A stretch of DNA of 64,000 nucleotides, from assembly GCF_003334335.1 (NCBI RefSeq), contig NZ_QOWQ01000027.1; one strand, given 5' to 3'. The DNA comes from Escherichia coli (GTDB lineage Bacteria; Pseudomonadota; Gammaproteobacteria; Enterobacterales; Enterobacteriaceae). This document shows, in pieces, positions 25,810-26,065 of this stretch. The notes beneath the pieces are model-generated. The model was not told where the DNA came from. It worked only from the letters and a program-made list of their open reading frames with translations, and did not search any database. The position numbers were made by a program, and so were the translations under genes. How positions within the stretch are numbered: position 1 is the stretch's first letter; every line of letters begins with the position of its first letter.

Positions 25810-25861
25810 ACAGAAAACCGCCGGGGTTACCGGCGGTGCAGATTGTTGACAACGTACGCAT

Positions 25862-25970
25862 TGTTCATGCCGGATGCGGCGTAAACGCCTTATCCGGCCT
25901 ACAAAACAGTGCAAATTCAATATATTGCAATCTTCTGGTAGGCCTGATAAGCATCGCGCATCAGGCAAGC
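25862..25970. repeat. REP/BIME element (GCCGGATGCGGCGTAAACGCCTTATCCGGCCTAC and inverted partner)
   Basis: Canonical REP consensus at 25869-25902 and a second inverted REP-like copy near 25938-25966. Confidence 0.6.
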
Positions 25971-26065
25971 TTACATTTGTCATCAGTATCAACCACCGGG
26001 TAACCGGCGGTGATGGCTTTTTGACGAGCTACAGACAAAAATGCATTCGTCATTGATTAGCCCGG

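Follow-up and report, generated by a model that had tools for sequence, protein, structure and literature searches.

A BIME-1 between two copies of a terminator-like hairpin in the rutG–ymdF spacer of Escherichia coli: a probable target-site duplication of hairpin length

We analysed a 64-kb stretch of DNA from the Escherichia coli contig NZ_QOWQ01000027.1 (the window; all coordinates are positions in it), in which the convergent genes rutG (+ strand) and ymdF (− strand) are separated by a 256-bp spacer, and this spacer holds a bacterial interspersed mosaic element of the BIME-1 type between two near-identical GC-rich hairpins, here called H1 and H2. The coding sequence of rutG ends with the TAA stop codon at 25807–25809, according to the list of open reading frames and the RefSeq annotation of the identical K-12 sequence, and that of ymdF occupies 26066–26239, according to the same list and the 174-nt annotation in identical or near-identical genomes. 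Read from rutG, the spacer consists of an A-tract, H1, the A motif, a Y-type repetitive extragenic palindromic (REP) unit, the L linker, a Z1-type REP, the B motif, H2, ATGGC and a T-run at 26018–26022, and the downstream context ATGGCTTTTT, which includes this T-run, is retained 3′ of H2. The RefSeq K-12 record lists no repeat feature at the position of the BIME-1.

The segment at 25839–25992 is a complete BIME-1 of 154 bp, and H1 and H2 adjoin its exact ends. A preliminary description of this DNA had seen a pair of REPs between the hairpins; the REPs are indeed there, but they are parts of a complete element with A and B motifs. On the + strand the element begins with the A motif CAGATTGTTGACAACGTACGCATTGTTCAT (25839–25868), which is also found at tsx-yajD, dppA-dppB and 17 further loci. 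It is followed by the Y REP (25869–25902), which has CTAC at its end and was recognised by its inverted repeat, a partial match to Rfam naRNA4 and alignment with other BIME-1s. The L linker (25903–25937) contains AAATTCAATATATTG, which resembles the consensus of integration host factor (IHF) and is conserved in the alignment of the BIME-1 family, and positions 25903–25945 match Rfam ES036 with 38.5 bits against a gathering score of 37.6. IHF binding of the BIME-1 linker is stated in the literature (PMC3333891); for the window copy only the consensus-like sequence was read. The Z1 REP (25938–25966), with GTAG at its start, is inverted relative to the Y REP, as shown by the inverted repeats and by alignment to 17 other BIME-1s. 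The B motif (25967–25992), which consists of AAGCTTACATTTGTCATCAGTATC and an AA that possibly belongs to the duplicated target, was delimited by family alignments. This composition of Y REP, L linker with an IHF site and Z1 REP, and a size of ∼150 bp, define BIME-1 (PMC3333891, PMC1187871), also known as RIP or RIB, and the window copy is an ordinary member in composition, order, size, single copy number and location at gene 3′ ends. It is the sole BIME-1 of the window and a single unit without tandem array.

The sequences adjacent to the REPs are conserved in the family and mark the element ends, and tsx-yajD, dpp, fbp and other loci share these A and B motifs. Their reading as locus-specific spacers was rejected, as an N-masked BLAST search finds the left sequence elsewhere too. 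The ends of the element are precise, (T)CAGATTG...CAGTCTC(A), both 3′ ends carry TC|T, and the first ∼14 nt of the A motif recur at the B end as an imperfect inverted terminal repeat. When the A end CAGATTGTTGACAA is read directly against the reverse-complemented B end GATACTGATGACAA (consensus GAGACTGATGACAA), ∼11 positions out of 14 match, longer arms reach 74% in the repeat search, and the ends are conserved across loci. The stretch from H2 through the BIME-1 to H1 folds as one hairpin of −107.7 kcal/mol (z −6.8).

H1 and H2 were identified by sequence, repeat search, folding and alignment. H1 (ACCGCCGGGGTTACCGGCGGTG), the left copy, lies at 25817–25838 with the upstream A-tract kept, and the repeat begins at 25816 if the preceding A is counted; H2 (CCACCGGGTAACCGGCGGTG), the right copy, lies at 25993–26012, or at 25991–26012 with the shared AA. 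The preliminary description had placed near-identical GC-rich hairpins at 25816–25838 and 25993–26012; both are present and stable, and only the start of the H1 hairpin is off by one. H1 forms a perfect 8-bp stem with a 5-nt loop (AACCGCCGG-GGTTA-CCGGCGGTG) and folds in its context with −19.6 kcal/mol (z −4.1 versus shuffled controls). The stem of H2 has 7 bp with one A·C mismatch on the + strand (G·U on the − strand), and H2 folds with −17.1 to −17.4 kcal/mol (z −2.6 to −3.6 versus shuffled controls). Aligned as direct repeats, the two are identical in 20 of 23 columns (14 of 15 ungapped in the repeat search); they share the last 10 bp, and all 3 differences are to the left of that stretch. 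Their alignment score of 16 is higher than that of every one of 552 mismatched left/right flank pairs drawn from other BIME-1 loci as a control (maximum 14, mean 6.4). There is no further copy of the hairpin in the 64-kb window, and genome-wide it is single copy except in strains with the two-hairpin allele. A dispersed hairpin family was rejected, because each genome has the hairpin with its flank only once, the duplication excepted.

The preliminary description had read the hairpins as a target or terminator that was duplicated on either side of an inserted BIME, and had proposed that strains should be compared for presence or absence of the REP block, with both repeats and identical sequence between them in all strains and no empty site as the contrary outcome. 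A 551-bp query across the spacer matched in all 5,426 complete E. coli genomes and was fully covered in only 1,734 of them; the sampled remaining rows span 377 bp, or 311 bp where ymdF has a 66-bp deletion. The short allele is 174 bp shorter, which is the start-to-start spacing of H1 and H2, and reads ...CATAAACAGAAAACCGCCGGGGTTACCGGCGGTGATGGCTTTTTGAC..., that is, one hairpin without the BIME, with the left flank of H1 and the right flank of H2. A 38-nt probe composed of the hairpin and its flank was found at 7,154 places in 5,416 genomes, with two copies in ∼1,738 genomes, one in ∼3,678 and none in 10. Hence the proposed comparison does reveal an empty-site allele, and this allele is the majority, carried by about two thirds of the complete E. 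coli genomes. As in a target-site duplication, direct repeats (25816–25838 and 25991–26012) adjoin both ends of the element and one copy stands at the empty site.

Two further alleles bear on the origin of the duplication, and they lend strength to the proposal of a duplicated target. One is a BIME-1 in opposite orientation at the same site, present in one species-representative record (L008) and in 4 complete E. coli genomes, and bracketed by the perfect or near-perfect 22-bp repeat CCGCCGGGGTTACCCGGCGGTG. The inverted and the K-12 copy of the BIME-1 are 83% identical, whereas the flanks are 93% identical; relative to the family consensus, there are 6 differences at conserved positions in the inverted copy, 9 in the K-12 copy and none in common. 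Because the copies are more divergent than the flanks and share no derived states, we regard the inverted BIME-1 as a separate insertion, and its origin through inversion of one insertion between the palindromic repeats is disfavoured. The other allele is that of strain 2020CK-00188, which has the K-12-type insertion (with the same private variants) and the H2 sequence AACCGCCGGGGTAACCGGCGGTG, only one substitution away from the H1 of the window. Thus H2 was at first a complete hairpin copy, in which the G-to-A change and the 1-nt deletion arose afterwards. The BIME-1 of this strain (L222) also has a 7-bp deletion (GCATCGC) relative to 25951–25957 of the window, by which the tip of the Z1 REP is lost. 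The haplotype with the inverted BIME-1 (L008, L213, L214), at the rutG 3′ end and the ymdF flank, differs in the flanks by ∼7% from every other E. coli allele, although the genomes that carry it are ordinary E. coli, which suggests an old or introgressed segment.

The duplication is not restricted to this spacer. A search with one exact 21-mer, taken from the A/Y junction, gave 120 metagenome stretches, which correspond to 28 distinct loci, 24 of them single BIME-1s with readable flanks. At 10 of the 24 loci, a direct repeat adjoins the element on both sides, one copy to the left of the A end and the other to the right of the B end; it is ∼19–27 bp in length at 9 loci, and longer and less well bounded at L207. 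The scores of these 10 loci are between 15 and 23, compared with the control maximum of 14, and one further locus reached 11. Each flanking repeat is a locus-specific GC-rich stem-loop, unrelated in sequence between loci, and the repeat boundaries are within ∼0–3 nt of the stem base; left copies retain an upstream A-tract and right copies a downstream T-tract. Left flanks at or below −9 kcal/mol were found at 15 of the 24 loci, compared with 2 of 22 control sequences taken 200 nt away. Moreover, empty alleles with a single hairpin were confirmed at 3 further loci: the ysgA-metE empty allele is 171 bp shorter; the fbp filled allele has a perfect 23-bp repeat; and pitA-uspB is filled in 1,940 genomes, its empty site AAAACGAGCGGGTCAGTTTACTGGCCCGCTTTTTTT being a textbook bidirectional terminator. 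Whole-hairpin duplication is therefore frequent (∼40% of sampled loci) and not obligatory, and the earlier interpretation was too modest, since it is a frequent footprint of the BIME-1 family rather than a local curiosity. At yiiF-fdhE, the flanks are too divergent for a reading. At fbp, the terminator loop reads ATTGCT in the empty allele (L209 452–478), and in the filled allele both copies have it reverse-complemented as AGCAAT (L112 11941–11963 and 11760–11782, − strand), while the stem is unchanged.

With a probability of roughly 0.85, these observations are explained by insertion of a BIME-1 at a terminator stem-loop with duplication of the whole hairpin. In the ancestral rutG–ymdF spacer there would have been a single GC-rich stem-loop, with an A-tract before it and a T-rich tail behind it, and this stem-loop would have been a bidirectional intrinsic terminator shared by both convergent genes. 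The BIME-1, a non-coding mobile repeat of ∼150 bp, would have integrated at the stem-loop, leaving the whole of it (22–23 bp) on both sides of the element as a target-site duplication of hairpin length. H1 would have kept the upstream context and H2 the downstream context, and three mutations would have arisen in H2 later in the K-12 lineage. That the insertion made the duplication is argued by the second insertion in inverted orientation, by the near-unmutated H2 in 2020CK-00188 and by the recurrence at unrelated loci.

The opposite polarity, in which the two-hairpin state with the BIME is ancestral and slippage or recombination at the 22-bp direct repeats gave rise to the short allele, is improbable in our judgement, although a deletion between H1 and H2 would remove exactly 174 bp and leave exactly one hairpin. 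Long and short alleles are also mixed in a neighbour-joining tree of 720 bp of the flanks, and the abstract of Bachellier 1997 reportedly speaks of ‘excision’ of whole BIME-1s. Deletion leaves unexplained, however, why a hairpin is duplicated around the BIME-1 here, in the inverted allele and at 9 other unrelated loci. The sampled empty alleles are all of the H1 type with no H1/H2 chimaera, which is a weak test, as the longest identical stretch is the last 10 bp. From Bachellier et al. 1997, PMC1187871 reports only the presence or absence of BIME-1s among isolates, and PMC3333891 likewise documents this presence and absence among strains.

We give still less credit to a partial duplication, in which the duplication comprised only the 10-bp ACCGGCGGTG, and H2 received its left half (AACCACCGGGTA) from a donor site together with the BIME, or from a circle of the BIME and a hairpin that integrated through recombination at the hairpin. 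The position of all three differences to the left of the identical last 10 bp fits with this, as does the finding that CCACCGGGTA is native beside the BIME-1 insertion point of dppA-dppB and is followed there by TGGCTTTT as at rutG; circle intermediates with capture of flanking DNA have also been proposed by Ton-Hoang et al. Nevertheless the K-12-type allele of 2020CK-00188 places both the A and the 1-nt deletion after the insertion, by which a foreign flank or a circle is largely rejected. In addition, the inverted insertion carries a perfect 22-bp repeat, the dpp 10-mer is on the A side and not on the B side, and the hairpins elsewhere are unrelated in sequence, so that recombination between shared hairpins cannot be a general route. 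Least of all can we believe in two independent terminators that resemble each other by chance or convergence with the BIME merely between them. Both GC-rich hairpins do lie near the ends of convergent genes, but the likeness of H1 and H2 includes the loop and is above every control pair, H2 has no T-run on the strand used by ymdF, and the single hairpin in most strains refutes this idea.

Several points weigh against insertion with hairpin duplication, either at this locus or as a general rule. The loci were sampled with one 21-mer from metagenome contigs and are not a census, and at 13 of the 24 no hairpin is duplicated. The dppA-dppB element has a duplication of just 5 bp (GTATG), and its insertion point is not at a stem foot; the filled allele there (3,250 genomes) equals the empty allele plus 156 bp, that is, the element and the 5-bp repeat. 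At gcd-cueO the B end adjoins a single hairpin and nothing is duplicated. The duplication length is thus not fixed, being ∼19–27 bp at hairpin sites, 5 bp at dppA-dppB and not visible at gcd-cueO. In the rutG–ymdF spacer itself, the flank tree gives no polarity and the comparison has no outgroup, so that recombination between H1 and H2 could have turned some filled alleles back into empty ones. Downstream of rutG, the Enterobacter and Leclercia loci carry neither ymdF nor the hairpin. Furthermore, all 3 differences of H2 from H1 correspond to the native state at dppA-dppB.

This likeness to dppA-dppB extends beyond the three differences. The native dppA-dppB insertion site CCACCGGGTATGGCTTTT has 10 nt in common with the mutated left half of H2 (25993–26002) and 8–9 nt in common with the native right flank at rutG (26014–26022), as compared from L006 (1484–1501 and 1652–1665) and the empty dpp alleles L217/L218. 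With the changes of H2 being post-insertion, the likeness to the dppA-dppB site may be coincidence or gene conversion.

The precise ends, the terminal inverted repeats and a duplication length that tracks the stem-loop point to one break per strand on opposite sides of the palindrome. We see an even chance that the target strands are broken in this way at the stem feet, and that gap repair then copies the stem-loop. The target may be engaged as an extruded hairpin or cruciform, in which the stem feet would be neighbours in space, and where no hairpin is engaged the stagger would be short, as at dpp. That dpp and the hairpin sites follow a single rule, namely a stagger of a constant 5 bp over the base of an extruded cruciform, is speculation; the duplications are the stem-loop plus only 0–3 nt, so it fits only with partial extrusion. 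By association, the obvious candidate enzyme is TnpA-REP, the REP-associated tyrosine transposase (RAYT), a relative of the IS200/IS605 tyrosine HUH transposases, whose in vitro cleavage of BIME DNA takes place at C|T near REPs (PMC3333891), although the footprint is more like that of a staggered-cut transposase. The tnpA-REP gene is outside the window, and the literature examined on RAYT and BIME (PMC3333891) contains no demonstration of transposition in vivo. A further point against insertion with hairpin duplication comes from the enzyme family: IS200/IS605-type tyrosine transposases, including the family of TnpA-REP, are described as leaving no target duplications (PMC3333891), and from this trait either the candidate enzyme or the proposed mechanism may be wrong.

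More tentatively still, BIME-1, and by extension the enterobacterial REPINs, may integrate by a structure-directed route that was undescribed before, in which terminator stem-loops are the target, the breaks are made at opposite feet and the hairpin is duplicated. If this is true, the element comes to lie in a 3′ untranslated region with a complete terminator restored on its far side; no insertion footprint or target rule would have been defined before for BIME-1 and REPINs, and the footprint-free IS200/IS605 model that is now assumed would not fit.

In a review, REP and BIME sequences are treated as being without the signatures of transposons or of MITEs, which are miniature inverted-repeat transposable elements (PMC3184786), whereas in the window the ends of the BIME-1 are precise, its terminal inverted repeats are imperfect, and the duplicated target is of hairpin length. 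REPINs, mobilised with RAYTs, are alike in having two inverted REPs with GTAG/CTAC tags that form a long hairpin, and BIME-1 is their E. coli counterpart. Single-strand transposition of the IS200/IS605 type yields no target duplication and inserts beside a short guide-recognised sequence, unlike the ∼19–27 bp at hairpins and the 5 bp at dpp for BIME-1. MITEs mobilised in trans by DDE transposases are similar in being non-coding and ∼150 bp long, in their terminal inverted repeats, target duplication and filled and empty alleles, and in having sites just downstream of genes; their duplications, however, are short and of fixed length per transposase (PMC3184786), whereas that of BIME-1 tracks the size of the target stem-loop.

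Closest among published observations are REP dimers in palindromes, namely GTAG-23 of Thermomicrobium roseum in CCGSSCC(n3-4)GGSSCGG and the CGTC-1 dimers of Halothiobacillus neapolitanus (PMC3733652). These are likewise REP-type elements at short GC-rich palindromic targets, but the dimers lie inside the palindrome with one arm per side, whereas BIME-1 has a complete stem-loop on each side and one at the empty site. Published models for the spread of BIMEs and REPINs (including PMC3333891) involve neither target duplications nor terminator targeting, and population models assume random, often lethal, insertion of REP, BIME and REPIN elements. BIME-1 and its presence/absence polymorphism are already known. 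We found no description of flanking duplications of hairpin length in the literature searched, which excluded key primary papers of the 1990s, and an earlier description is possible. The MITE YPAL of Yersinia (De Gregorio et al. 2006, J Bacteriol) is reported to target terminator-like sequences often. We know of no partner insertion sequence with ends that match BIME-1, although no search aimed at one was made.

The flanking hairpin duplication is a clue to how BIME-1s insert, and the precise ends, the terminator stem-loop as target and the duplication of the whole hairpin together would amount to a concrete target rule and a testable mechanism. Such a rule would account for the location of BIME-1s at the 3′ ends of transcription units, and also for how insertion can do almost no harm, as a complete terminator re-forms downstream. 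For annotation, paired near-identical hairpins around a BIME would mark an insertion and not two terminators.

In the terminator scan, the single hairpin of the empty site is terminator-like on both strands, having a GC-rich stem-loop and a U-run in either direction. In the window only H1 on the − strand passes the scan, and H2 on the + strand fails. On the − strand, H1 is followed by TTTTCTGTTT, and the two hairpins can also be read there as H2 followed by UUGAUACUGAUGAC and H1 followed by UUUUCUGUUU. From these sequences H1 is likely the terminator of ymdF in this strain. Because of the difference between UUGAUACUGAUGAC after H2 and UUUUCUGUUU after H1, the ymdF transcript would read through H2 and the BIME-1 and end at H1, and its 3′ untranslated region would fold as the one long hairpin described above. 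As for rutG, it would have no clean intrinsic terminator in this strain, because H1 has lost its T-run on the + strand and the stem of H2 is mismatched. Hence strain-specific differences in 3′ untranslated regions are predicted, here for ymdF and rutG.

Further observations were made on other BIME-1 copies and on ymdF. The BIME-1 at tsx-yajD (L005 1470–1660, O55:H7/O157:H7 lineage), found by an A-motif probe in ∼345 of the 5,426 genomes, directly adjoins the tsx terminator hairpin with its A side and has a truncated B motif that continues into the yajD stop codon. Tandem BIME-1 units, each with an A motif and with AAACGCCTTAGCAGACTCT between units, occur in L181 (∼11980–12400, − strand), which differs from the description of BIME-1 as single copy. 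Comparison of gcd-cueO in L088 (10850–11200, − strand) with L221 showed one allele with an extra partial A motif and a second Y REP inside the BIME; this allele is 63 bp longer than the K-12-like one, and the extra segment is an internal duplication of one element end. In O157-type strains, ymdF has an in-frame 66-bp deletion (108-nt versus 174-nt coding sequence; L003 543–650), which is probably the loss of one internal repeat unit encoding the KGG motifs of this con-10 family stress protein.
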